Source: Escherichia coli (GTDB lineage Bacteria > Pseudomonadota > Gammaproteobacteria > Enterobacterales > Enterobacteriaceae). Taken from it: a stretch of DNA of 64,000 nt. Made by a program: the position numbers and the translations under genes. Positions 1,787-56,677 of this stretch are shown piece after piece (position 1 is the first letter of the stretch; each line of letters opens with the position of its first letter). The stretch lies in the NCBI RefSeq assembly GCF_051903065.1, contig NZ_CP178438.1. The stretch is one strand, 5' to 3'. The notes below the pieces were generated by a model. It searched no databases and had not been told where the DNA came from. It saw only the letters and a program-made list of their open reading frames with translations.

Positions 1787-1885
1787 TGTACAAAATGATT
1801 AATGTGTTTTTGTCTGGCATAATTTGGGTTTTCAGCTTTAAGTAGTTAATATAATCATTCCTTACAAATGATTGAAGGGATGATT

Positions 1886-2380
1886 ATGCGTATCTTTGTT
1901 TTTTTTATATCTGCACTTTTATCTTTTAACTTGGCTGCGGAAGAGTGTAAGTTCAGCTTTAATGAGTCAGAATTAATCTCTTCTATAGGTATTGCACCAG
2001 TTAAGCAAGAGATAATAAAGGATGAAGGAATAACTAAGCGGCAATATGAATTCAGAAGAGAATTATCTTCTGAAGAAATGCTTAGTGATGACGCTGATGA
2101 AAAATATGAGCCGCAGTTTTATATATCTGTTTATAATCCATCATGCCCACAAAAGGTTATTGTTTGGTTTTTCAAAGACAATAAAAACACAATGGATTTA
2201 AGTAATGAGGTCCTTGCTGGTAGAGCGTTCAAGTATTTAACTGGTGTTAATGAAAGTATTTTTGAAAATAAAATGAAAAAGTTTTTAAAGGTACAGTCAT
2301 TTGAATCTTTTGATGAAAGGACAGATTCTAAATTTATAAAGAGTGGTGATATTTATTCCATTGATGTTCAACTCAGATAG
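1886..2380 (+). CDS. Hypothetical secreted protein; AT-rich accessory gene (moron) inside the tail module
   Basis: ORF 1868..2380; the ATG at 1886 is preceded by AGGGA; N-terminal signal-peptide-like segment MRIFVFFISALLSFNLAAEE; markedly AT-rich compared with the flanking GC-rich tail genes; no recognisable family. Confidence 0.5.
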   Translation: MRIFVFFISALLSFNLAAEECKFSFNESELISSIGIAPVKQEIIKDEGITKRQYEFRRELSSEEMLSDDADEKYEPQFYISVYNPSCPQKVIVWFFKDNKNTMDLSNEVLAGRAFKYLTGVNESIFENKMKKFLKVQSFESFDERTDSKFIKSGDIYSIDVQLR

Positions 2381-2399
2381 TAATTAAAAATATTAGGTT

Positions 2400-2456
2400 C
2401 CCGCCACATCTTCTGCGATGTAAATAACTGACAAAGCAGATTTGGCGGGTTTTTTG
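2400..2456 (+). terminator. Putative hairpin plus T-run downstream of the moron
   Basis: cccgcca ... tggcggg inverted repeat followed by tttttt. Confidence 0.35.
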
Positions 2457-2470
2457 TATCCGGAGTTTAT

Positions 2471-3799
2471 ATGACGTGGAAAGACAGGCTTCAGGATGCG
2501 TCATTTCGCGGCGTACCGTTTAAGGTTGAAGAAGAAAGTGCGGGAACCGGTCGCCGTGTGGAAACACACGAATATCCGAACCGCGACAAGCCCTATACCG
2601 AAGATCTGGGAAAAGTCACTTTCCGCCCGTCCATCACAGCTTATGTGGTGGGAGATGACTGCTTTGACCAGCGCGATCGCCTGATTGACGCGCTGAATAA
2701 ACCCGGTCCCGGCACGCTTGTCCACCCGACATATGGTGAGCTGAAAGTCTGTGTTGACGGGGAAGTTCGGGTCAGCACATCGAAAAGTGAAGGGCGTATT
2801 GTCCGCTTTGACCTGAAGTTTGTCGAAGCAGGAGAACTCTCTTACCCCACATCAGGTGCGGCGACGGCGCAGACGCTGATGTCATCCTGTTCTGCACTGG
2901 ATGACTGCATCAGTGACAGCTTCAGCGGTTTCAGTATCGATGGTGTGGCGGATTTCGTGCAGAACGACGTTATCGGTAATGCCAGCATAATGCTGGGGTA
3001 TGTTTCTGATGCGATGAAAGTGGTGGATTCTGCCGTATCGGATGCCGCCAGGCTGTTGCAGGGGGATATCTCGGTACTTCTGCCGCCGCCATCGTCAGGC
3101 AAAAATTTCGTTGAGCAGGTGCAGAAAATGTGGCGTACCGGGAAACGCCTTTATGGTAACGCCAGCGACCTGGTCACCATGATCAAAACGCTTTCCGGTG
3201 TCAGCCTCGGCAGCGATCTGCAACCGCGCGGCGTCTGGAAAACGGACAGTAAAACCACCGCCACGGCGACGCAGCAGCGTAACGTGGTTGCCAGCACCCT
3301 TCGTACGACCGCAATCAGCGAAGCGGCGTATGCCGTCACACGATTGCCTGCGCCCACAACTTCCGCGGTGATGCAGAATGCCACAGTGGGGCCGTCAACA
3401 ACACCCACGCAGAGCACCGGCTGGCCTTTTGTCACGCATCCGGCACTGAACAATGCACCGGCGGTGAAAAACACGGTTGACCTGCCAACGTGGGAAGAAC
3501 TGACCGACATTCGCGACACACTGAATACGGCAATTGATAAGGAGTTGTCCCGTACAACCAGTGATGCGCTGTTTCTGGCGCTGCGCCGGGTGAAAGCAGA
3601 TCTGAATGCGGATATCAACACGCGCCTTGAACAGTCTGCACGGATCATTCAGCGCACGCCGGATGAGGTTTTACCCGCGCTGGTGCTGGCGGCGACCTGG
3701 TTTGATAACGCGGCGCGTGACGCGGACATTATCCGGCGTAATGCCATTACGCATCCCGGCTTTGTGCCGGTGATCCCTCTGAAGGTGCCAGTGCAATGA
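2471..3799 (+). CDS. Phage DNA circulation protein (Mu gp43/N-like)
   Basis: 442 aa; N-terminus MTWKDRLQDASFRGVPFKVEEE...HEYPNRD matches the Mu-like DNA circulation family as I recall it; located between tape measure and baseplate genes. Confidence 0.7.
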   Translation: MTWKDRLQDASFRGVPFKVEEESAGTGRRVETHEYPNRDKPYTEDLGKVTFRPSITAYVVGDDCFDQRDRLIDALNKPGPGTLVHPTYGELKVCVDGEVRVSTSKSEGRIVRFDLKFVEAGELSYPTSGAATAQTLMSSCSALDDCISDSFSGFSIDGVADFVQNDVIGNASIMLGYVSDAMKVVDSAVSDAARLLQGDISVLLPPPSSGKNFVEQVQKMWRTGKRLYGNASDLVTMIKTLSGVSLGSDLQPRGVWKTDSKTTATATQQRNVVASTLRTTAISEAAYAVTRLPAPTTSAVMQNATVGPSTTPTQSTGWPFVTHPALNNAPAVKNTVDLPTWEELTDIRDTLNTAIDKELSRTTSDALFLALRRVKADLNADINTRLEQSARIIQRTPDEVLPALVLAATWFDNAARDADIIRRNAITHPGFVPVIPLKVPVQ

Positions 3800-5848: not shown

Positions 5849-6893
5849 ATTTCAGCGCCCGACGCTGGCAGAAAATATCAGTATGCTCCGTAACGATTTA
5901 TTCGCCAGGCTGGACGTCAGTGACACGCTCCGGCGCATGGATGAAGACGTGCGGGCAAAGGTGTATGCGGCGGCGCTGCATACGGTTTACGGTTACATCG
6001 ATTATCTGGCAATGAACATGCTGCCTGACCTGTGCGATGAGTCCTGGCTGGCGCGACATGCTGCGATGAAACGGTGTCCGCGCAAGGGGGCGACGGCTGC
6101 CAGCGGGTATATGCGCTGGGAAGGTGTCAGCGATGGCCTGAAGGTGACCGCCGGGAGTGTTATTCAGCGCGATGACCTGGTTCAGTACACGGCAACTGCC
6201 GATGCAACCAGCTCCGGTGGTGTCCTGCGCGTGCCGATCGCCTGCTCAAGTGCAGGTGCGGTCGGTAACGCTGACGACGGTACGGCATTAATCCTGGTCA
6301 CGCCGGTGAATGGTCTGCCGTCTTCCGGTGTGGCTGACACCCTTACAGGCGGATTTGATACTGAAGAGCTGGAAACGTGGCGCGCCCGCGTCATTGAGCG
6401 GTATTACTGGACGCCTCAGGGCGGGGCTGACGGGGACTATGTCGTCTGGGCTAAAGAAGTGCCCGGCATTACCCGCGCATGGACATACCGTCACTGGATG
6501 GGAACGGGAACTGTCGGTGTGATGATTGCCAGCAGTGACCTGATTAATCCCATTCCGGAAGAATCAACGGAAACGGCAGCAAGACAACATATCGTGCCAC
6601 TGGCCCCGGTGGCAGGCTCTGATTTGTATGTATTCAGGCCGGTGGCACATACGGTGGATTTTCATATCCGCGTGACGCCGGACACACCAGAAATACGAGC
6701 CGCCATCACCGCGGAGTTGCGTTCGTTTCTTCTGCGTGATGGTTATCCGCAGGGAGAACTGAAGGTATCGCGTATCAGTGAGGCGATTTCCGGTGCGAAC
6801 GGGGAATATAGCCATCAGTTGCTTGCACCGGCAGACAATATCTCCATTGCGAAAAATGAACTGGCGGTTCTGGGGACGATTTCATGGACGTGA
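5835..6893 (+). CDS. Phage baseplate J-like wedge protein (Mu gp47-like)
   Basis: 352 aa; conserved synteny. Confidence 0.65.
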
Positions 6894-7471: not shown

Positions 7472-8512
7472 ATGCATCGTATAGACACGAAAACCGCGCA
7501 GAAGGATAAGTTCGGCGCGGGTAAGAACGGTTTTACCCGTGGTAACCCCCAGACCGGCACACCTGCCACCGATCTGGATGATGACTACTTTGACATGTTG
7601 CAGGAGGAGCTTTGCAGCGTTGTGGAGGCATCAGGTGCCAGCCTGGAGAAGGGGCGGCATGACCAGTTACTTACCGCACTTCGCGCGCTGCTGTTAAGCC
7701 GCAAGAATCCGTTTGGCGATATCAAATCGGATGGCACGGTGAAAACAGCTCTCGAAAACCTTGGTTTGGCTAATTACGCAGACAAAGCAAGTCTGGCGAA
7801 TCAGGAGTTTTCTGGTCCCGTATCATCTAAAGACTGCGTTACCGCAACATCGGCAGATGGGGTAACCCGCAAAGTATCGCTTAATGCCAGTACGGGTTTG
7901 AAGATAGTTATTTATGATGGCGGAACTTACAAGGGGGCAATAAACATCCCGGCAAAAGACGGGACAATGGCACTTGTATCTGATTTGGCTAATTTTGCTG
8001 ATAAATTGAGTGCTTCTGAGCAATATTTTAAAGGACCTGTTTCATCCGGGGATGGGCTCATAGCAAAATATGGCACCGCAAAAATAATTCTGTCAGCCCA
8101 AAACGGTCAGAGAATTGTTGTTTATACAAACGACACTTACCGTGGAGCTATTAATATTCCACTTCGTGACGGAACTATGGCGCTCCTGGATGATGTTACT
8201 AATGTTAGCGCAACGCTGCTGGGTATATCTCAGTCATGGCAGAACGTGAAAGCCAGCCGTAGTGCCGGGGTTACGTATACCAACTCAACAGGCAGGCCCA
8301 TTGCAGTTTCAATCGCCGGAATAATGGCAACACGTCAGAATGGAGTTCAGTTGTCACTTGCCGTTAATGGCACAGAGGCTTCAAGTTTTGCCGTGACTGA
8401 CAGCTCGTTTGACATCAGGGGTAACGTATTTGCGATTGTGCCACCAGGAGCAACTTACAAACTTACAGCAAATAACATTAATTCTATTTTGACCTGGTCG
8501 GAGCTTCGCTAA
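7472..8512 (+). CDS. Phage tail fibre protein
   Basis: 346 aa; N-terminus [10 protein letters not shown]...[23 protein letters not shown] resembles the conserved tail-fibre N-terminal domain; internal ~60-aa duplication; followed by an assembly chaperone gene. Confidence 0.75.
7749..7774. other. hix/gix-like imperfect palindrome inside the tail fibre gene (candidate invertase crossover site)
   Basis: ctctcGAAAACC-TT-GGTTTggctaat; compare the hix half-site TTCTTGAAAACC; lies at the junction of the conserved N-terminal and variable C-terminal fibre regions (codons ~93-101). Confidence 0.45.
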
Positions 8513-8889
8513 TGAATACGGTAATCAAAGAGCAAAAATTCTTTAAGGACTCGGCCGGTGTGATTTTTTGCATCGACATCATGGAAATGAATGCTGAGTC
8601 ATGGGGTGAAGAAGTACAGGCCGGATGGCAGGAAATTAGTGCCGATGAAGCGCTATTAATTGCTAATCCACCGCCTACAGAGGAACAGCTATTTGAACAG
8701 GTTAGGGCGCAGAAACAGGCCCTGATTTCCGAGGCGACTGCAATTATAGATCCACTTAAGGATGCACTGGATGGTGGCTATATCGACGATGCAGACAAAC
8801 CAAGACTGACTGAATGGCAAAAGTACCGCTATGAGGTGACGAAAGTTGATCCGGGAAAACCTGTGTGGCCACCGAAGCCTACAGAATAG
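8512..8889 (+). CDS. Tail fibre assembly protein (Tfa/U-like chaperone)
   Basis: 125 aa; start overlaps the fibre stop; C-terminus ...KYRYEVTKVDPGKPVWPPKPTE typical of Tfa proteins. Confidence 0.75.
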   Translation: MNTVIKEQKFFKDSAGVIFCIDIMEMNAESWGEEVQAGWQEISADEALLIANPPPTEEQLFEQVRAQKQALISEATAIIDPLKDALDGGYIDDADKPRLTEWQKYRYEVTKVDPGKPVWPPKPTE

Positions 8890-8932
8890 GAACATTTTTT
8901 ATAACCATCAAAAATCTGGTGATATTTCGCCT

Positions 8933-8958
8933 CTTCTCCTGTTTTTACAACAGGAGAA
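8933..8958 (+). other. Perfect 10-bp stem hairpin overlapping the invertase Shine-Dalgarno sequence
   Basis: cttctcctgt-tttaca-acaggagaag; the right arm contains AGGAG positioned 7 nt before the invertase ATG at 8965. Confidence 0.5.
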
Positions 8959-8964
8959 GCACTC

Positions 8965-9528
8965 ATGATTTACGGGTATGTTCGTGTATCAACAAATCAT
9001 CAGGATACAGAGTTGCAACGTCTTGCACTTGAGTCAGCTGGCTGTGAGCGAATTTATGAAGAATATGCCAGTGGCAGAACAGCTAATCGCCCTGTGTTAA
9101 AGGAATTAATTACGGTGATGAAAAGTGGAGATGAGTTGATTGTCTGGAAGTTAGATCGGATAGGGAGAAATGTGCTGCATGCGCTATTTATGTTTCAAAA
9201 TCTGCACGAAAAAGGTGTTAATTTTCGGAGTATTACAGATGGCGTAGACCTGAAAACAGCAAGTGGTCGCTATAATTTCCGTAATATTCTTTCTGCTGCG
9301 CAGTATGAATCTGATTTGAATAGCGAGCGAACTTTAGCTGGTTTGGCTATTGCCAGATCCAAAGGCCGGATTGGTGGGCGTAGACCGAAGTTTAGCGACG
9401 AGCAGTGGCAACAGATGGGAGCGCTCATAGCGGCAGGGAAATCACGGCGTTATGTTGCACGTATCTATAACGTTGGGCTATCAACCCTATATAAACGATT
9501 TCCTGTTACTGGCATTCAAACGAAATAA
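8965..9528 (+). CDS. Serine recombinase, DNA invertase (Gin/Pin/Hin family)
   Basis: 187 aa; MIYGYVRVSTNHQ...LDRIGRN motifs characteristic of resolvase/invertase family; adjacent to tail fibre genes as in the Mu G-segment/gin arrangement. Confidence 0.85.
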   Translation: MIYGYVRVSTNHQDTELQRLALESAGCERIYEEYASGRTANRPVLKELITVMKSGDELIVWKLDRIGRNVLHALFMFQNLHEKGVNFRSITDGVDLKTASGRYNFRNILSAAQYESDLNSERTLAGLAIARSKGRIGGRRPKFSDEQWQQMGALIAAGKSRRYVARIYNVGLSTLYKRFPVTGIQTK

Positions 9529-9671: not shown

Positions 9672-9920
9672 TTAGTGAACAAACCACTCGTCAGCAGATT
9701 CCCAGGTATCTTTCAGAGTCTCCTGAACAAAAGTTTTTGCAGAATCCTTATCTGCGGTGCGTGTAACAGAAAGGCCATCGTTGCTGGTGGCTTTTACGAT
9801 CACCTCTACATCGTCATAACGTTTACTGATGCGTCGGGTTAATTCTTCCTTTAACGCATCCACAGCACCGGTTGGCATTTTAGTCATTTTTTCTTTGGCT
9901 ATGCAGATTTCAATACGCAT
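9672..9920 (-). CDS. DinI-family DNA damage-inducible protein
   Basis: 82 aa; MRIEI...[24 protein letters not shown]...DEWFV pattern typical of DinI/MsgA; LexA boxes immediately upstream. Confidence 0.8.
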
Positions 9921-9981: not shown

Positions 9982-11079
9982 TCAAGAGGCCTTATTTCTG
10001 CTCCTTTGGAGCTCTTCAAAACGATTATGTAAAGATTTCGGATACAGTTCGGTATATACCTGCCATAGCACGTTTAATGAACGATGCCCTGTAACCTGGG
10101 CGACTTCCTCAATACTAAAACCAGCCTCAAATAAGCGACTTGCCCCTTCTCTACGCAAATCATGGTATCGCAGATCTTTAATACCTAATTTGCTTCTTAC
10201 CCTCTGGAATCCCGCAGTAACAGAAGTGCTGTTATATGGAAAAATGAATTCTGATTTTTTGGGTTGTCGTTGGACGATATCCCAGGCTTCCCCAAGCAAG
10301 GCTACTTTCATATGGTTGCCTTCCTTTTTACGTGGATCTTTCCTGTCTCTTACGAGTATGGATTTTTGTTCCTGATCGAGATCCTCCCATCGTAATCGGC
10401 ATACTTCACCGATTCGCATACATGACCACACAGAAAATTTGAGGATATCAACGAACGGAATTTTTGAGCATTTATGTGTAGATCGTTGTTGAAGACCTTC
10501 AATGAGCATGTCCAGTTCATCAGATGCCGGTCTACGATTACGACGATTTGATTTACCAATTAAACCAAGTTTAAGTAGATATGGACGAGCGGCTTTTGCT
10601 GGGTTTGATGTGTAATTAATTCCATATACAGGTTTGGCAGCATCCAGAACACTGCCAAGATAACTAACATCGTGGCTAACTGTAGCTGGACCTGCACCAG
10701 CGTTGTTTCTTAGCCTGCAATGTTCAATTACGTCATTTTCTGTCAGTTCAGATAGTTTGAGCGCGGAGACGTCACTATCCATAAGCAGTTCCAGCACATA
10801 TCTTTTAGTACGGCCTGCTTTACCTCCGGCATTTGGGTCATTTAAATATTTGTGTAGTAAGTCACGGACTGTAAGTCCGTCAACTGCATTTGATGATGGA
10901 ATGCCATATAGATCTAATTCCATCACTTTCTGTGTGCCCCATGTTTTGGCATGAGCATGTTTAGGGAATGTTTTACTTTCCCTGTAAGTGATAACACCTT
11001 TTTCTTTGATAATCACATTACAGCGATAGCGTGGTGTGCCATCGGATTTTAGTCGTTTCTCTATGTTATAGTATGCCAT
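9982..11079 (-). CDS. Tyrosine-type phage integrase
   Basis: 365 aa; C-terminal region with R...HDLRR...Y spacing typical of tyrosine recombinases; GAGG RBS 8 nt upstream; terminal position of the prophage next to dusA. Confidence 0.8.
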   Translation of the reverse strand: MAYYNIEKRLKSDGTPRYRCNVIIKEKGVITYRESKTFPKHAHAKTWGTQKVMELDLYGIPSSNAVDGLTVRDLLHKYLNDPNAGGKAGRTKRYVLELLMDSDVSALKLSELTENDVIEHCRLRNNAGAGPATVSHDVSYLGSVLDAAKPVYGINYTSNPAKAARPYLLKLGLIGKSNRRNRRPASDELDMLIEGLQQRSTHKCSKIPFVDILKFSVWSCMRIGEVCRLRWEDLDQEQKSILVRDRKDPRKKEGNHMKVALLGEAWDIVQRQPKKSEFIFPYNSTSVTAGFQRVRSKLGIKDLRYHDLRREGASRLFEAGFSIEEVAQVTGHRSLNVLWQVYTELYPKSLHNRFEELQRSRNKAS

Positions 11080-11167: not shown

Positions 11168-12205
11168 ATGCACGATAATCATGAAACACAAAAAATTAAT
11201 CAAACCAGCGTGATGCCTGAAAAAACTGGTGTTTACTGGAATTCTCGGTTTAGCATTGCTCCTATGCTCGACTGGACGGACAGACATTGCCGCTATTTCT
11301 TGCGTCTGCTTTCCCGCAATACGTTGCTGTATACCGAAATGGTGACTACAGGGGCGATTATTCACGGTAAAGGTGATTATCTGGCGTACAGTGAAGAAGA
11401 ACATCCGGTAGCGTTGCAACTGGGCGGTAGCGATCCGGCGGCGCTGGCGCAGTGTGCGAAGCTGGCAGAAGCGCGCGGATATGATGAGATCAACCTGAAT
11501 GTCGGCTGCCCGTCTGACCGGGTGCAGAACGGCATGTTTGGTGCGTGTCTGATGGGTAATGCGCAGCTGGTTGCCGACTGCGTGAAAGCGATGCGCGATG
11601 TGGTGTCGATTCCGGTGACGGTGAAAACGCGTATTGGCATCGATGATCAGGACAGCTATGAATTTCTCTGCGATTTCATCAACACCGTTTCCGGCAAAGG
11701 CGAGTGTGAGATGTTCATCATCCATGCACGTAAAGCCTGGCTTTCGGGGTTAAGCCCGAAAGAAAACCGTGAAATCCCGCCGCTCGATTATCCGCGTGTG
11801 TATCAACTGAAGCGTGACTTTCCGCATCTGACAATGTCCATTAACGGTGGCATCAAGTCGCTGGAAGAAGCTAAAGCGCATTTGCAACATATGGATGGCG
11901 TGATGGTCGGGCGCGAGGCGTATCAGAATCCGGGTATTCTGGCGGCGGTAGACCGGGAGATCTTTGGTTCCTCGGATACCGATGCCGATCCGGTTGCGGT
12001 AGTGCGCGCCATGTATCCGTACATTGAGCGTGAACTCAGCCAGGGGACGTATCTCGGCCATATTACCCGGCATATGCTGGGCTTGTTCCAGGGTATTCCT
12101 GGCGCGCGGCAGTGGCGGCGTTATTTAAGTGAAAATGCCCATAAAGCGGGTGCAGACATTAATGTGCTGGAACACGCGCTCAAACTGGTGGCGGATAAGC
12201 GTTAA
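11168..12205 (+). CDS. dusA: tRNA-dihydrouridine synthase A
   Basis: 345 aa; recognised DusA sequence and K-12 synteny (dusA-pspG-qorA-dnaB); extreme N-terminus may be prophage-supplied. Confidence 0.9.
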
Positions 12206-16612: not shown

Positions 16613-17806
16613 GTGTTTCAAAAAGTTGACGCCTACGCTGGCGACCCGATTCTTACGCTTATGGAGCGTTTTAAAGAAGACCCTCGCAGCGACAAAGTGA
16701 ATTTAAGTATCGGTCTGTACTACAACGAAGACGGAATTATTCCACAACTGAAAGCCGTGGCGGAGGCGGAAGCGCGCCTGAATGCGGTGCCTCATGGCGC
16801 TTCGCTTTATTTACCGATGGAAGGGCTTAACAGCTATCGCCATGCCATTGCGCCGCTGCTGTTTGGTGCCGACCATCCGGTACTGCAACAACAGCGCGTA
16901 GCAACCATTCAAACCCTTGGCGGCTCAGGGGCATTGAAAGTGGGCGCGGATTTCCTGAAACGCTACTTTCCGGAATCAGGCGTCTGGGTCAGCGATCCTA
17001 CCTGGGAAAACCACGTAGCAATATTCGCCGGGGCTGGATTCGAAGTGAGTACTTACCCCTGGTATGACGAAGCGACTAACGGCGTGCGCTTTAATGACCT
17101 GTTGGCGACGCTGAAAACATTACCTGCCCGCAGTATTGTGTTGCTGCATCCATGTTGCCACAACCCAACGGGTGCCGATCTCACTAATGACCAGTGGGAT
17201 GCGGTGATTGAAATTCTCAAAGCCCGCGAACTTATCCCATTCCTTGATATTGCCTATCAAGGATTTGGTGCCGGTATGGAAGAGGATGCCTACGCCATTC
17301 GCGCCATTGCCAGCGCTGGATTACCCGCTCTGGTGAGCAATTCGTTCTCGAAAATTTTCTCCCTTTACGGCGAGCGCGTTGGCGGACTTTCTGTTCTGTG
17401 TGAAGATGCCGAAGCTGCAGGCCGCGTACTGGGGCAATTGAAAGCAACAGTTCGCCGCAACTACTCCAGCCCGCCGAATTTTGGTGCGCAGGTGGTGGCT
17501 GCGGTGCTGAATGACGAGGCATTGAAAGCCAGCTGGCTGGCGGAAGTAGAAGAGATGCGTACTCGCATTCTGGCAATGCGTCAGGAACTGGTGAAGGTAT
17601 TGAGCACAGAGATGCCAGAACGCAATTTCGATTATCTGCTTAATCAGCGCGGCATGTTCAGTTATACAGGTTTAAGTGCCGCTCAGGTTGACCGACTACG
17701 TGAGGAGTTTGGTGTTTATCTCATCGCCAGCGGTCGCATGTGTGTCGCCGGGTTAAATACGGCAAATGTACAACGTGTGGCAAAGGCGTTTGCTGCGGTG
17801 ATGTAA
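16613..17806 (+). CDS. tyrB: Aromatic amino acid aminotransferase
   Basis: 397 aa starting at GTG ([14 protein letters not shown]...); track ORF begins at an upstream ATG. Confidence 0.9.
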
Positions 17807-18027
17807 TGCAGGAAAGCAGGCTGGAGTTACCCAGCCTGCAGTGAAATTAAACTGTCGTCGCTTTCACTCTTTCTTTATAGATGATTTTTTTGATGCCATC
17901 GTTCTACGTAAGAGATAATAAACGTTATTAGTTCTTTTATTGTTAAGCTTATCCCAATTATCTGGAATTCCTTATCCTGTTTTTTTGTGTGGAGTAATAA
18001 TTTCTGCACATCTAACCATTATTAAAT

Positions 18028-18570
18028 TTAATAATAAGTGCCGGGTTTGTTACGATAGAATTTTTCTATATCCTCAAGAATATGCTTTGCCTTATTGCCT
18101 GTGACTTTCTGAGATTCAATTATAGTATCGTTAAATTCTAAAGTTAAAGAGAACTCTTTTTTTCCGCTTTGTGTAAGTTTAACCTTATATTGATTACCAA
18201 TATCAAATAAAAAGGTCCTGTAATGAGAATAATCACCTTTAACCTCCTCGGCAAAACAGCAAAGCGTGCAAATATACATAAAATCTTTCTTACCCCTGAT
18301 TTTGTTAACTAAATCAATAAATGCGTGAAAAACTGTACTTGCAATAGAACTTGATGCTTCTTCTCCAGGTCTACAAAAATCTTTTGCAATTTTTAACTGT
18401 GTTTCTATATATAAAAAGAGATCTTTGGCATAAGAGAAATCTTTGGCATAAGAGATATCTTTGTTATTTAGTGTATCTAGCTCTACAGGTAAAGATGTCG
18501 TTTTGTTGCTATTCACATATGATATATTCATGTCATCATCTCCTTCGGGAGTAATAAAATTAGTCACCAT
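18028..18570 (-). CDS. Hypothetical protein, AT-rich, unknown function (occupies the tyrB-aphA gap where I recall K-12 carrying only the small gene yjbS)
   Basis: 180-aa ORF; contains an 18-bp tandem duplication (DISYAKDFSYAKD); no family recognised. Confidence 0.45.
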   Translation of the reverse strand: MVTNFITPEGDDDMNISYVNSNKTTSLPVELDTLNNKDISYAKDFSYAKDLFLYIETQLKIAKDFCRPGEEASSSIASTVFHAFIDLVNKIRGKKDFMYICTLCCFAEEVKGDYSHYRTFLFDIGNQYKVKLTQSGKKEFSLTLEFNDTIIESQKVTGNKAKHILEDIEKFYRNKPGTYY

Positions 18571-18669
18571 TGTAGGGTAGGGTTCTGGTCAATCAGAAAT
18601 CATCTTTATAAAAATGTTATTTTATAAACTTCGATTGTTTTTGTAATGCTGTATCATTAAGTTCATTAA

Positions 18670-19662
<993 letters not shown>

Positions 19663-32608: not shown

Positions 32609-32754
32609 AAAATATCCTTATAATTAACAAGAAAGAAAAGGCATATTCTCTGCATTATCATTTTCTACGACTGTCAAAAATCGCTCATTTTTTAATGAGT
32701 TTATTTGTTTAATATTATGGGAAAAGGTGATGCATTTGGGAGAGGAAGAGTATT

Positions 32755-32774
32755 CCCCGGTCAGACGACCGGGG
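32755..32774 (-). terminator. Hairpin downstream of actP (end of the acs-yjcH-actP operon)
   Basis: ccccggtc-agac-gaccgggg. Confidence 0.4.
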
Positions 32775-32785
32775 AAGGGGAGAGA

Positions 32786-34746
<1,961 letters not shown>

Positions 34747-53693: not shown

Positions 53694-55679
53694 TTAATTT
53701 GGGGTTACGATATTTACCCACAAATCGAAATTATCCAGACAGGCAATAATTTCTTCCAGTTTCGCACCATTGCCAATAATTTTGGCTTTCTTCGCTTTTA
53801 CCAGATCCGCCATTTTGGCTTGTCCGGTCAGCACGGCGTGCAGATCTTCACGACTGATGTAGAAAGAGGCGTCAGCTTGGGATTGCAGCGTTTTACGGTA
53901 GTTAAGCACGCTATCGTTCAGCGTCAGGTTGAGGTTATCGCCGTTGCTCATATTGAAGTTCAGGCTGATATTTTTACCCGCGGCTTTTTCGCTATCGAGG
54001 CGAACGGACATAAAGTCGAACAGCATTTCGACCGACATTCCGCGAATGGTGTCCGGGGAACCGGTGGTGCCGTGGCTGAACTTATGCACCCCTTCGCGCA
54101 GCTCTTTCGCGCCGGTCAGGTAGAAACCGCGCCATGTGGCGGACTCGGCCTGATAGCCCAGCTGTTCAAAGTTATTCGCTTGCAGATTCTTCGCGACCTG
54201 GTCACCCGGGTTGGCGGCAATCACCTGTTTCAGCAGTTCTGCCGACCAGCGGTAATCACCTTGCTTGTTCGCTTCTTGCGCCAGGTTGATGACACGGGCA
54301 GAACCGCCCAGCGCTTTCACGTAACGTTTGCCCATCTCTACCTGACCATACGGATGCAGGTTAGCCGGGTTACCGTCGTAATAGCCAAGATAGAAGTTAT
54401 ACACCGCGCGGGCGTTGTGGCTGACAGAACCGTAATAACCGCGGCTGGCCCAGTTATTGGCAAGCGCAGGCGGCAGCTTAATCATGTCGCCGATTTCATT
54501 CATGGTGTAGCCCTGGTTCGCCAGATGCAGGGTTTGATCGTGAATATACTTGATGGTATCGCGATATTTACCAATATAATCATTGATATGCTTATTGCCC
54601 CAGACCGGCCAGGTGTGCGGCATAAACAGTACTTCCGCGTCGTTACCCCACATATCCAGCGTTTCGTTCAGGTACTCTGTCCACTTGCTGGTATCGCGGG
54701 TTTTCGCGCCGCGCAGAGTGTAGAAGTTGTGCAGGGTATGCGTGGCGTTCTCGGCGGTACACAGGGCTTTCAGGGCCGGAATATAGAAGTGCATTTCGGC
54801 TGGGGCTTCGCTGCCTGGGGTCATCAGGAAGTCAAACTCCAGGCCGTCGATAATCATCTTCTCGCCAGTTCTGACGATAGTTTTGGTTGGCGCAATAATG
54901 CTCGGGTCGCCGGTTGCCAGCGTCACGCCAAGGCCATTACCCACGTTGCCTTGCGCGTTGTGCGGCAGTAACAGACCGTAAGAGTAGAGCGCACGGCGGC
55001 TCATGATGTTACCCGCCAGCACGTTTTCGCTGATGGCTTCGTCCATAAAGCCAGCAGGGGCAATCACCTGAACTTTGCCGGATTTAACATCGGCTTCAGA
55101 GATAATACCTTTCACGCCACCATAGTGGTCAGTGTGGCTGTGAGTGTAAATAACGGCAACAATCGGTTTTTGCGGACGATGCTGGAAGTAAAGATCAAGT
55201 GCGGCTTTTGCGGCAGGCGGCGTCACCAGCGGGTCGATAACAATAATGCCTTTCTCGCCCTCAACGAACGTAATGTTAGAGATATCCTGGCCGCGCACCT
55301 GATACATTTTATCGGTGACTTTGAACAGGCCAGAAATGCCGTTGATCTGCGACTGACGCCACAGGCTGGGGTTTACGGTTTCCGGCGCAGCGGCATTAAT
55401 ATCAAATTTGTAATCGTCTGTGCGGTAGTAAACTTTACCGTTCGCATCACGCAGAATACCTTCATCCAGCAGCGGGGCGATAAATCCACGCTGGGCATCG
55501 TCAAAATCCTGACGATCGCTAAACGGTAATGATTTGGCGTAATTCTGATTAACCTGTTGGGTATATTGAGTGGCGGCTTTCGCTTCCTCTTTCGCGTTAG
55601 CGGTATTTACCATCATGCCGCTGGCGGCAGTTAACGCAATAACAATCCTGCTCAAACGGAATAACCGAGAGTTATTCAT
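53694..55679 (-). CDS. yjcS: Alkyl/aryl sulfatase (metallo-beta-lactamase fold)
   Basis: 661 aa; signal peptide; HSHTDH metal-binding motif. Confidence 0.92.
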
Positions 55680-55969
55680 ATAAATCTCCATTTATCATTT
55701 ATGTCGTAAATATGTAATCCATGCAAAATACGTCATTTAAAGCTGGCGTTATCATAATTGGGAAATTGCGACTTTAATAAGTGGAAGTGTGAGCGGAACG
55801 ATCCATTTTATTAGGCATTTGTGCTGAAGAGGGAAAAGTACGGCATATTTATTACTATCATCAATAATGTGACCTGACTTATATTTTTATTATTTATATT
55901 ACTTTCAGCTTTCACTTCGACAAGAAGTACGCACAATGATTAATCAGATGAATGATGCGGAGTGTAACC

Positions 55970-56677
55970 ATGAAACCCGTCGTGCTGGTGGTGGATGATG
56001 ACACGGCTATCTGCGCACTGTTGCAGGACGTGTTAAGTGAACATGTCTTTACGGTTTCAGTCTGCCATACCGGACAGGAGGCCATATTGCGTATTGAGGG
56101 CGATCCTGACATTGCGCTGGTGGTGCTGGATATGATGCTACCCGATACCAACGGCCTGAGAGTATTGCAGCAAATCCAGAAACTGCGTCCGACATTGCCG
56201 GTGGTGATGTTGACCGGCATGGGCAGTGAGTCTGATGTGGTGGTCGGGCTGGAAATGGGCGCGGATGATTACATCTGCAAACCGTTCACCCCGCGGGTGG
56301 TGGTCGCACGACTGAAAGCGGTGTTGCGACGGGTTGGTGCGCTGGCGGTTAATGACGAGAAAAGCGCCGGGCTGTCATTCAATGGCTGGTATCTCGATAC
56401 CATGCGCTGCCAGTTGCACAATCCGCTTCAGCAACATGTCGAGTTAACTCAGGGCGAATATGGCTTGTTACTGGCTCTGGCGCAAAACGCGCGTCGGGTA
56501 TTGAGCCGCGAGCAGTTGCTGGCGTTCACCCACAGCGACAGCGTGGAGGTGTTTGATCGCACCATCGACGTATTAATCATGCGCTTACGACGCAAAATCG
56601 AACTCAACCCGCATCAGCCGATGTTGATTAAAACTCTGCGCGGTCTGGGGTATGTCTTCGCTGCCGACGTGCATTAA
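55970..56677 (+). CDS. OmpR/PhoB-family response regulator
   Basis: 235 aa; receiver domain (VVDDD...D at ~55 aa...K) plus winged-helix C-terminus (...TLRGLGYVF); GGAG RBS 8 nt upstream; not present at this position in K-12. Confidence 0.85.
   Translation: MKPVVLVVDDDTAICALLQDVLSEHVFTVSVCHTGQEAILRIEGDPDIALVVLDMMLPDTNGLRVLQQIQKLRPTLPVVMLTGMGSESDVVVGLEMGADDYICKPFTPRVVVARLKAVLRRVGALAVNDEKSAGLSFNGWYLDTMRCQLHNPLQQHVELTQGEYGLLLALAQNARRVLSREQLLAFTHSDSVEVFDRTIDVLIMRLRRKIELNPHQPMLIKTLRGLGYVFAADVH

Follow-up and report, generated by a model that had tools for sequence, protein, structure and literature searches.

The junction between the tape-measure and DNA-circulation genes in the tail operon of SfV-like prophages is a polymorphic cargo hotspot, occupied in the Escherichia coli prophage considered here by a dispensable, AT-rich gene that encodes the 164-residue precursor of a predicted secreted protein. 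The gene belongs to a family, phrog_8976, that is itself without prior characterisation. Its product probably acts on the cell envelope. As its main role, interference with phage entry at that site, i.e., superinfection exclusion, is tentatively proposed by analogy with better-described phage genes, at somewhat short of an even chance.

Results

The prophage and its surroundings

The DNA analysed here (hereafter, the window) is a stretch of 64,000 nt, given as one strand, from E. coli assembly GCF_051903065.1 (contig NZ_CP178438.1). The element that hosts the cargo gene is an SfV-like temperate prophage, integrated next to dusA, whose head is of the HK97 type and whose contractile tail is of the Mu type. 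With Escherichia phage SKA5, the region shares 99.4% identity, and with several E. coli chromosomes, 100%; the cargo gene is annotated as encoding a "hypothetical protein" wherever it is found. Towards the right end of the prophage lie genes encoding a Pin/Gin-type invertase (8965-9528), a DinI-like protein (9672-9920) and the tyrosine integrase (9982-11079). These are followed by dusA (11168-12205), with the rest of the window corresponding to E. coli core genome.

Comparison with E. coli strain M8 revealed several local differences. The inverted alternative tail-fibre segment of M8, comprising minus-strand fibre and assembly genes, is missing from the window in the region 7472-9528, and the two sequences are not colinear at 7770-8912. 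A search for inverted repeats returned only one weak 20-nt pair (7257/8613), and the stretch from the tail fibres to int holds no O-antigen modification (gtr) genes. At ~24195, between ssb and yjcB, the window is without the group II intron (ltrA) of M8. AT-rich islands are also found in the chromosomal part of the window, at 17626-19121, 31101-32896 and 55401-56096. The lowest GC content among them, 0.285, is reached near 32226, and the island at 17626-19121 corresponds to small hypothetical genes situated between tyrB and aphA in M8.

The cargo gene: position, start and composition

On its left, the slot is bordered by the 3' part of the tape-measure gene (20-1786, + strand), an ORF annotated as tape measure in SKA5 and E. 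coli M8 and matched by PF10145 in orthologous loci. On its right is the gene for the Mu gp43-like DNA-circulation or baseplate-hub protein (2471-3799, + strand), preceded by the ribosome-binding site GGAG at 2462-2465 and matched by PF07157 in orthologous loci. The cargo gene itself (1886-2380, + strand; product WP_001219112.1) is separated from these neighbours by gaps of 99 nt on its 5' side and 90 nt on its 3' side, at odds with the downstream baseplate genes, which overlap or abut.

When measured from its first ATG, the cargo ORF extends from 1868 to 2380 (+ strand) and encodes 170 residues. An earlier reading made from the sequence alone had given a length of 165-170 residues and, while the ORF is indeed real, that length was corrected, since the true start is almost certainly the ATG at 1886, yielding 164 residues, and not that at 1868. 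Four lines of evidence agree on this point. The sole ribosome-binding site, GAAGGG at 1874-1879 (+ strand), lies 6 nt before ATG 1886 and serves this codon only, with ATG 1868 and ATG 1880 having none; the RefSeq start of WP_001219112.1 (164 residues) is ATG 1886; the alignment to phrog_8976 begins at residue 7 of the 170-residue ORF; and the 164-residue orthologues all begin MR.

The GC content of the cargo gene is 0.313 (0.26 at third codon positions), as compared to 0.514 (0.56) for the tape-measure gene and 0.562 (0.61) for the DNA-circulation gene. Relative to all 495-nt windows of the 64 kb, this corresponds to z = -3.2, with 1.9% of such windows being equally low. Along the sequence, GC content falls from 0.49-0.55 to 0.28-0.34 across positions 1800-2500, before rising to 0.54-0.61, such that the cargo ORF and its spacers make up the sole AT-rich stretch within the tail region. 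The sequence-only reading was thus borne out as to a GC content strongly below that of the neighbours (0.31 vs. 0.51 and 0.56), a ribosome-binding site of the gene's own and the interruption of an otherwise tightly coupled tail operon.

Purifying selection acts on the gene, given dN/dS values of ~0.1-0.2 where these could be computed, synonymous divergence being saturated. These values, together with the existence of full-length orthologues, mostly of 164 residues, down to 27% identity, show that the ORF is truly coding. The cargo gene is, as such, a real gene under purifying selection.

A polymorphic slot in the tail operon

In the phages SfV, SfI, SfII and vB_EcoM-689R6, the genes flanking the junction are 96-97% identical to those of the window and there is no cargo gene, the junction measuring 61 nt as opposed to 684 nt. 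Because SfV, SfI and SfII are viable without it, the cargo gene is dispensable. The junction was detected in 1,093 of 5,426 complete E. coli genomes, with the cargo gene being present in 83 of the 1,093. In other genomes, the same slot holds one of several other genes. These encode a 176-residue protein with an N-terminal transmembrane segment (phrog_5485; 177 genomes), preceded by a promoter-like TTGTAA-16-TAGAAT sequence with TG; an OB-fold protein (PF12869; 72 genomes) that is encoded on the minus strand and, in its full-length form, has an N-terminal transmembrane segment; a 225-residue lipoprotein with the lipobox LLGGC (phrog_1353; 55 genomes); and a 125-residue PH-like protein (phrog_7115) seen in Edwardsiella phage EPP-1 as well as in a single E. 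coli contig. The occupants of the slot are predominantly envelope-directed. A 150-residue version of the OB-fold cargo matches phrog_8545, labelled "superinfection exclusion Sie-like" (E 5e-41), a label that is annotation only.

The same picture was obtained from IMG/VR, where 80 contigs encode a DNA-circulation protein at least 98% identical to that of the window. The slot is empty in 25 of these, while 16 carry the cargo gene considered here, 30 the gene encoding the 176-residue protein, 3 the OB-fold gene and 1 the lipoprotein gene; the remaining 5 loci comprise 2 with a different tape-measure gene, 1 with the PH-like gene and 2 that are truncated. Individual IMG/VR loci merit mention in their own right. 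In L095 (2201-3379), the gene for the 176-residue protein is followed by that of an IS200-type transposase; L040 (2979-3437) contains the E. coli copy of the EPP-1 PH-like cargo; L085 (2922-3374) encodes the full-length minus-strand OB-fold protein with its N-terminal transmembrane segment; and the OB-fold copy in L022 is N-terminally truncated.

Every slot cargo is more AT-rich than its own flanks. When the various cargo proteins were compared by hhalign, no relation among them was detected (probability 0.1 for the present protein vs. the slot lipoprotein). Moreover, each class of cargo is tied to its own flank haplotype, a linkage which indicates that cargo is exchanged through homologous recombination within the genes on either side, as opposed to site-specific insertion. 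The earlier suggestion that the gene is accessory cargo was upheld, given its absence from SfV, SfI and SfII, its presence in 83 of 1,093 genomes and a slot that also accommodates at least four other unrelated genes that are more AT-rich than their flanks. The gene consists of extra DNA that close relatives lack at the same junction, and its composition deviates from that of its neighbours, both here and in all orthologous loci. In these respects, it is a moron in the sense of Juhala and Hendrix, here an AT-rich single-gene cassette in a tail operon with a predicted envelope product, of a well-known kind.

Orthologues and the age of the gene

Orthologues of the cargo gene were found in exactly the same slot in Kosakonia, in an enterobacterial metagenome scaffold, in Pantoea phage AH07, in Yersinia ruckeri and in other metagenomic phages, with the encoded proteins being 27-61% identical to that of the window. 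The identities of cargo and flanking proteins fall together, from 59-61% vs. ~75%, through 35-36% vs. 56-58%, to 27% vs. 43-55%, meaning that the cargo diverges in step with the flanking tail genes but faster. Because orthologues share the slot across genera and co-diverge with the flanks, the gene is best read as an old resident of the slot and not a recent arrival. The gene had earlier been described as inserted, but this is not to be taken as a recent event; recent horizontal insertion as the sole account was ruled out by this co-divergence.

In every locus, the orthologue is AT-rich, with a GC content of 0.31-0.40, as compared to 0.47-0.57 for the flanks. In six of these loci (L003, L005, L011, L013, L016 and L018), the cargo remains so (0.31-0.40) despite saturated synonymous divergence and flanks of normal GC content. 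Neither long residence nor recent import alone explains such persistent AT-richness, which suggests either selection on composition, possibly linked to silencing by H-NS, or exchange within a pool of AT-rich genes.

Signals at the junction

Downstream of the cargo gene, at 2400-2455 (+ strand), lies a terminator-like hairpin comprising a 7-bp GC stem (CCCGCCA/TGGCGGG), a loop of about 36-41 nt and a T6 run (-22.3 kcal/mol; z = -2.6), with 1 of 200 shuffled sequences folding equally well. Such a hairpin, also described in the sequence-only reading, is indeed present but appears to belong to the junction and not to the cargo gene, since empty sites and most other cargo types carry an equivalent. 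At empty sites, the tape-measure stop codon is followed by a 61-nt spacer that contains the terminator hairpin CCCACTCCGGTGGG and T6, together with the ribosome-binding site and start of the DNA-circulation gene. The corresponding hairpin reads CCCGC-TTCG-GCGGG-T7 or CCCAC-TCCG-GTGGG-T6 in relatives and at empty sites. Indeed, a terminator hairpin followed by CGGAG and ATG precedes the DNA-circulation gene in most of the junction variants examined, including the empty sites; in one OB-fold variant, there is no hairpin downstream of the cargo. The hairpins of the empty sites also argue against the hairpin being a terminator specific to the cargo gene. The hairpin in the window is of an odd form, in which a structured insert of 36 nt takes the place of the tetraloop seen in relatives and at empty sites, and this long form is common to all E. 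coli loci that bear the cargo gene.

A promoter scan of positions 1500-2800 returned no promoter-like sites, nor was a consensus sigma-70 promoter detected ahead of the cargo gene, be it in the window or in three relatives. The AT-rich 99-nt spacer on the 5' side of the gene (1787-1885, + strand) contains isolated -10-like hexamers, namely, TGgCATAAT at 1815-1823 and a perfect TATAAT at 1850-1855, and no consensus -35/-10 pair in a relaxed scan. In Pantoea phage AH07 and in loci L013 and L016, the tape-measure stop and the cargo start are only 15-17 nt apart, with the ribosome-binding site alone in between. Given the lack of a consensus promoter and the short gap in these relatives, expression in the lysogen is not implied by the sequence, and the cargo may be mainly a late gene. 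At minimum, co-transcription with the late tail operon is predicted. A search of Rfam revealed no RNA element around the cargo gene.

Export signal, cysteines and predicted fold of the cargo protein

The N-terminus of the cargo protein consists of MR followed by IFVFFISALLSF and NLAA|EE and includes a 12-residue hydrophobic core. Signals for Sec-dependent export were sought by hand, the criteria being a positively charged n-region, a hydrophobic core of 10-15 residues, small residues at positions -3 and -1 and the absence of a later transmembrane segment. Each of these traits was found. Mean Kyte-Doolittle hydropathy over residues 3-15 is 2.2, and the strongest 19-residue hydropathy window lies at the N-terminus only, with no transmembrane segment further along the protein. 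As such, the first 19 residues, MRIFVFFISALLSFNLAA (1886-1942, + strand), correspond to a predicted Sec type I signal peptide of n-h-c layout, cleaved before EEC and without a lipobox, and the protein is predicted to be exported. The signal-peptide-like N-terminus seen earlier in the sequence was thereby corroborated, the more so as the signal peptide is kept in all full-length family members examined but one.

Conservation was read from 13 close and 16 diverse members of the family. A cysteine situated 2-3 residues past the predicted cleavage site (C21, in LAAEEC) is conserved, while a second, C87, is invariant. Besides C87, only P76, A111, F139 and F150 are invariant across the family, and the alignment revealed no conserved residues of the catalytic type. 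The predicted mature protein is of 145 residues and 17 kDa, with a pI of about 5. C21 and C87 are probably oxidised, as would suit a periplasmic protein that is a substrate of DsbA. A lipoprotein of the Cor, Llp or Bor type was ruled out, as there is no [LVI][ASTVI][GAS]C lipobox and the first cysteine comes 2-3 residues after an AxA-type site.

AlphaFold2 modelling based on a 13-sequence alignment yielded a confident model (mean pLDDT 88; pTM 0.80) of an alpha/beta domain in which a seven-stranded antiparallel sheet is packed with helices. Structure prediction, advised in the sequence-only reading as a check, accordingly provided a fold with no convincing known relative. Foldseek searches of AFDB50 with the model returned the protein's own family and, after it, bacterial lipoproteins and exported proteins to which no function is assigned, DUF1454 among them, all of these being weak matches (E 1e-4 to 1e-5; TM about 0.5-0.56), while a search of BFVD returned one gut-virome protein (TM 0.63).

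A tiny family largely confined to SfV-like tail modules

The cargo protein matches phrog_8976, annotated in PHROGs v4 as being of unknown function, over its full length (E 3.2e-107; residues 7-170 of the long ORF aligned with positions 1-164 of the 164-position profile), and two distant family members, P0025 and P0027, match it as well. By contrast to this single hit, neither the protein nor 16 family members matched any Pfam entry at E values up to 10, NCBIfam was likewise without a match at up to 10, no PADLOC-DB 2.0 family was hit by the cargo protein at the same limit, with the other cargo genes of the slot also going unmatched in PADLOC, and a family profile run against PDB sequences gave noise only. 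These results accord with the earlier statement that no family could be recognised. The search for homology to a standard tail component, considered at the outset as grounds for rejecting an accessory role, was likewise negative in Pfam and PHROG, and the tape-measure chaperone gene is a separate one.

The family is tiny. Using phmmer against 1.84 billion representatives, 12 matches were obtained, all to the same family, and a profile built from 16 diverse members found no further relatives among 5.8 billion proteins. Members occur only inside SfV-like tail modules, bar one copy that lacks a signal. The only non-phage member, P0025 (33% identity), is encoded at 6001-6471 of a metagenome contig (L014; Logan ERR5002088), in an AT-rich islet 60 nt after the gene of a 1,079-residue autotransporter of the pertactin type. 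P0025 has neither the signal peptide nor the first cysteine, and may be a captured remnant.

Two specific assignments were considered and ruled out. Membership in the HK97 gp15/YebO family was dismissed, as there was no Pfam or NCBIfam match at E values up to 10 and no transmembrane segment beyond the signal peptide. For DUF1454 (YiiQ), hhalign gave a probability of 0.08 and PF07305 was not matched, with the fold match being only weak (TM about 0.5). None of gp15/YebO, Cor, Llp, Bor, Lom, Sp and the entries of PADLOC is a relative of this family. A search of the available literature revealed no paper on the cargo protein, on its accession or on the junction as a hotspot.

Discussion

Comparison with known systems

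The closest precedent for the cargo gene, by analogy, is the moron gp15 of HK97, which mediates superinfection exclusion at the envelope, blocking DNA entry with a specificity set by the incoming tail (Cumby et al., 2012, as related in PMC3594210). Within the HK97 tail operon, the gp15 gene adjoins that of the tape measure, and the encoded protein is targeted to the inner membrane (PMC3594210). The two share much: each is a single small gene of deviating composition, found beside the tape-measure gene of a tail operon, dispensable and with an envelope-bound product, this being a prediction in the present case. They also differ. The gp15 gene precedes that of the tape measure, and its product, a relative of YebO, is a small protein of the inner membrane known to be made in the prophage state. 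The cargo protein is instead an unrelated and predicted soluble periplasmic domain of 145 residues, encoded downstream of the tape-measure gene.

Sp of phage T4 is a second model for the means by which a protein facing the periplasm can prevent entry. In T4, the superinfection exclusion proteins Sp and Imm act in the periplasm or membrane against the incoming tail, with Sp inhibiting the tail lysozyme. No relation in sequence or fold between Sp or Imm and the cargo protein was detected, and the T4 proteins are membrane-anchored products of a lytic phage. The receptor-blocking lipoproteins Cor of phi80, N15 and HK022 and Llp of T5, as well as Bor of lambda, are likewise products of envelope-targeted accessory genes. 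In PMC3594210, Cor and Lom, the latter of lambda, are described as encoded by such genes, located in or beside the late or tail genes of temperate phages. Cor, Llp, Bor and Lom are lipoproteins or outer-membrane proteins, unlike the cargo protein, which has neither a lipobox, its cleavage site reading LAA|EEC, nor a beta-barrel. The slot lipoprotein of other E. coli prophages is equally unrelated to it (hhalign probability 0.1).

Other comparisons are less informative. The match to phrog_8976 is full-length yet adds a name only, as that family is without functional annotation. In the case of DUF1454/YiiQ, the weak likeness in fold (Foldseek E 7e-5; TM 0.56/0.47) concerns signal-peptide-bearing proteins of Enterobacterales on both sides, but there is no relation in sequence (hhalign probability 0.08) and the function of DUF1454 is itself unassigned. 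At the level of the junction, the antiviral hotspots of P2-like phages and P4 satellites, which Rousset and colleagues are said to have described in 2022 and which reportedly hold mostly cytoplasmic defence systems, offer a parallel. There too, unrelated accessory genes alternate at a fixed intergenic position among near-identical phages. The present slot differs in lying inside a tail operon and in holding single, mostly envelope-directed genes, none of which is recognised by PADLOC.

A proposed role at the envelope and its alternatives

We infer a periplasmic location, a disulfide, a mode of action by binding and an anti-phage function, and picture them as follows. The 164-residue precursor would be exported by Sec and its 19-residue signal peptide removed, upon which oxidation of C21 and C87 would yield an acidic alpha/beta protein of 17 kDa, soluble within the periplasm. 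Most likely, this protein would work by binding and not by catalysis, since conserved catalytic-type residues were not found and the surface is fast-evolving. Its target may be that part of an incoming tail which crosses the periplasm, be it the tape measure, the spike or the hub, or, alternatively, a host envelope factor needed by incoming phages. Standing against superinfection exclusion as the main role are the lack of any homology that ties the protein to exclusion, PADLOC being empty, the indirectness of reasoning from the gene's location, and the fact that known exclusion proteins are, to our knowledge, membrane proteins or lipoproteins, a soluble periplasmic one being unusual. Mainly late expression also fits classical exclusion, in which the gene is expressed from the prophage, less well.

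It is possible, if rather unlikely, that the protein is instead a lysogenic-conversion or fitness factor unrelated to phages, such as a periplasmic binder or inhibitor that shields the lysogen against the host or competitors, be it from a lysozyme, a protease, a colicin or a type VI effector, or a protein that alters envelope physiology. Periplasmic inhibitors and immunity proteins are typically small, exported and non-enzymatic, with disulfides; many conversion morons are likewise AT-rich; and the carriers of the gene include commensal, avian-pathogenic and clinical strains of E. coli, as well as Salmonella; the weak fold neighbours, being exported proteins and lipoproteins of unknown function, DUF1454 among them, point the same way. 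No similarity to a known inhibitor or immunity family was detected, however, and the confinement of the family to SfV-like tail modules, bar the one signal-less copy, argues for a phage-linked role over that of a general fitness gene, which would spread elsewhere. Another possibility is a late lytic-cycle accessory that is co-transcribed with the tail genes and exported to aid the phage's own cycle, for instance by tuning lysis or by preventing progeny or superinfecting particles from wasting their DNA on an infected or lysing cell. In line with this possibility, the cargo always lies 5' of the junction terminator on the strand of the late operon, begins 15-17 nt after the tape-measure stop in AH07, L013 and L016 with only a ribosome-binding site in between, is without a consensus promoter in the window and three relatives, and has stayed in its slot as it diverged alongside the tail genes. 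Yet many fully functional relatives do without it, one of the alternative occupants is encoded on the opposite strand and another is preceded by a good promoter-like site, as would suit cargo expressed from the prophage, and a perfect TATAAT is found in the AT-rich spacer of 99 nt ahead of the E. coli version. A late accessory role is considered unlikely, slightly more so than a fitness factor.

A structural or assembly component of the tail, such as a chaperone of the tape measure or hub, is highly improbable. All that speaks for such a component is the gene's location within the tail operon and its divergence in parallel with the tail genes, whereas the predicted cleavable signal peptide and the conserved cysteines lead out of the cytoplasm, where tails assemble, SfV, SfI and SfII build their tails without the gene, and no structural family of Pfam or PHROG is matched. 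A Phage_TAC_7 chaperone gene is, moreover, present upstream of the tape-measure gene; together with the signal peptide and dispensability, this ruled out identity as the tape-measure chaperone.

Returning to entry interference, a broader version of that proposal is that the cargo protein is the first of a new class of soluble periplasmic entry blockers, co-evolving with Mu-type tail tips, and that the junction is a hotspot, not described before, that is reserved for exclusion genes acting at the envelope. This version, drawn from a junction that is present in ~20% of complete E. coli genomes and that holds at least five unrelated cargo families, none of them in PADLOC, is considered possible but doubtful.

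Significance

Should the gene turn out to encode a late accessory or a host-fitness factor, it would be one more ordinary moron. The hotspot is the more useful result. The tail module is found in about one-fifth of complete E. coli genomes, and about one-third of these carry, in the slot, one of several mutually unrelated, uncharacterised and mostly envelope-targeted genes. Near-isogenic natural variants, either empty or bearing one of at least five types of cargo, are available for direct tests. A soluble periplasmic blocker, if truly such, would serve as a probe for the passage of Mu-type tails across the periplasm. If the slot genes are entry blockers, then the slot would be a compact and easily mined source of new superinfection-exclusion mechanisms, with a bearing on host-range failures in phage therapy and on competition among temperate phages.
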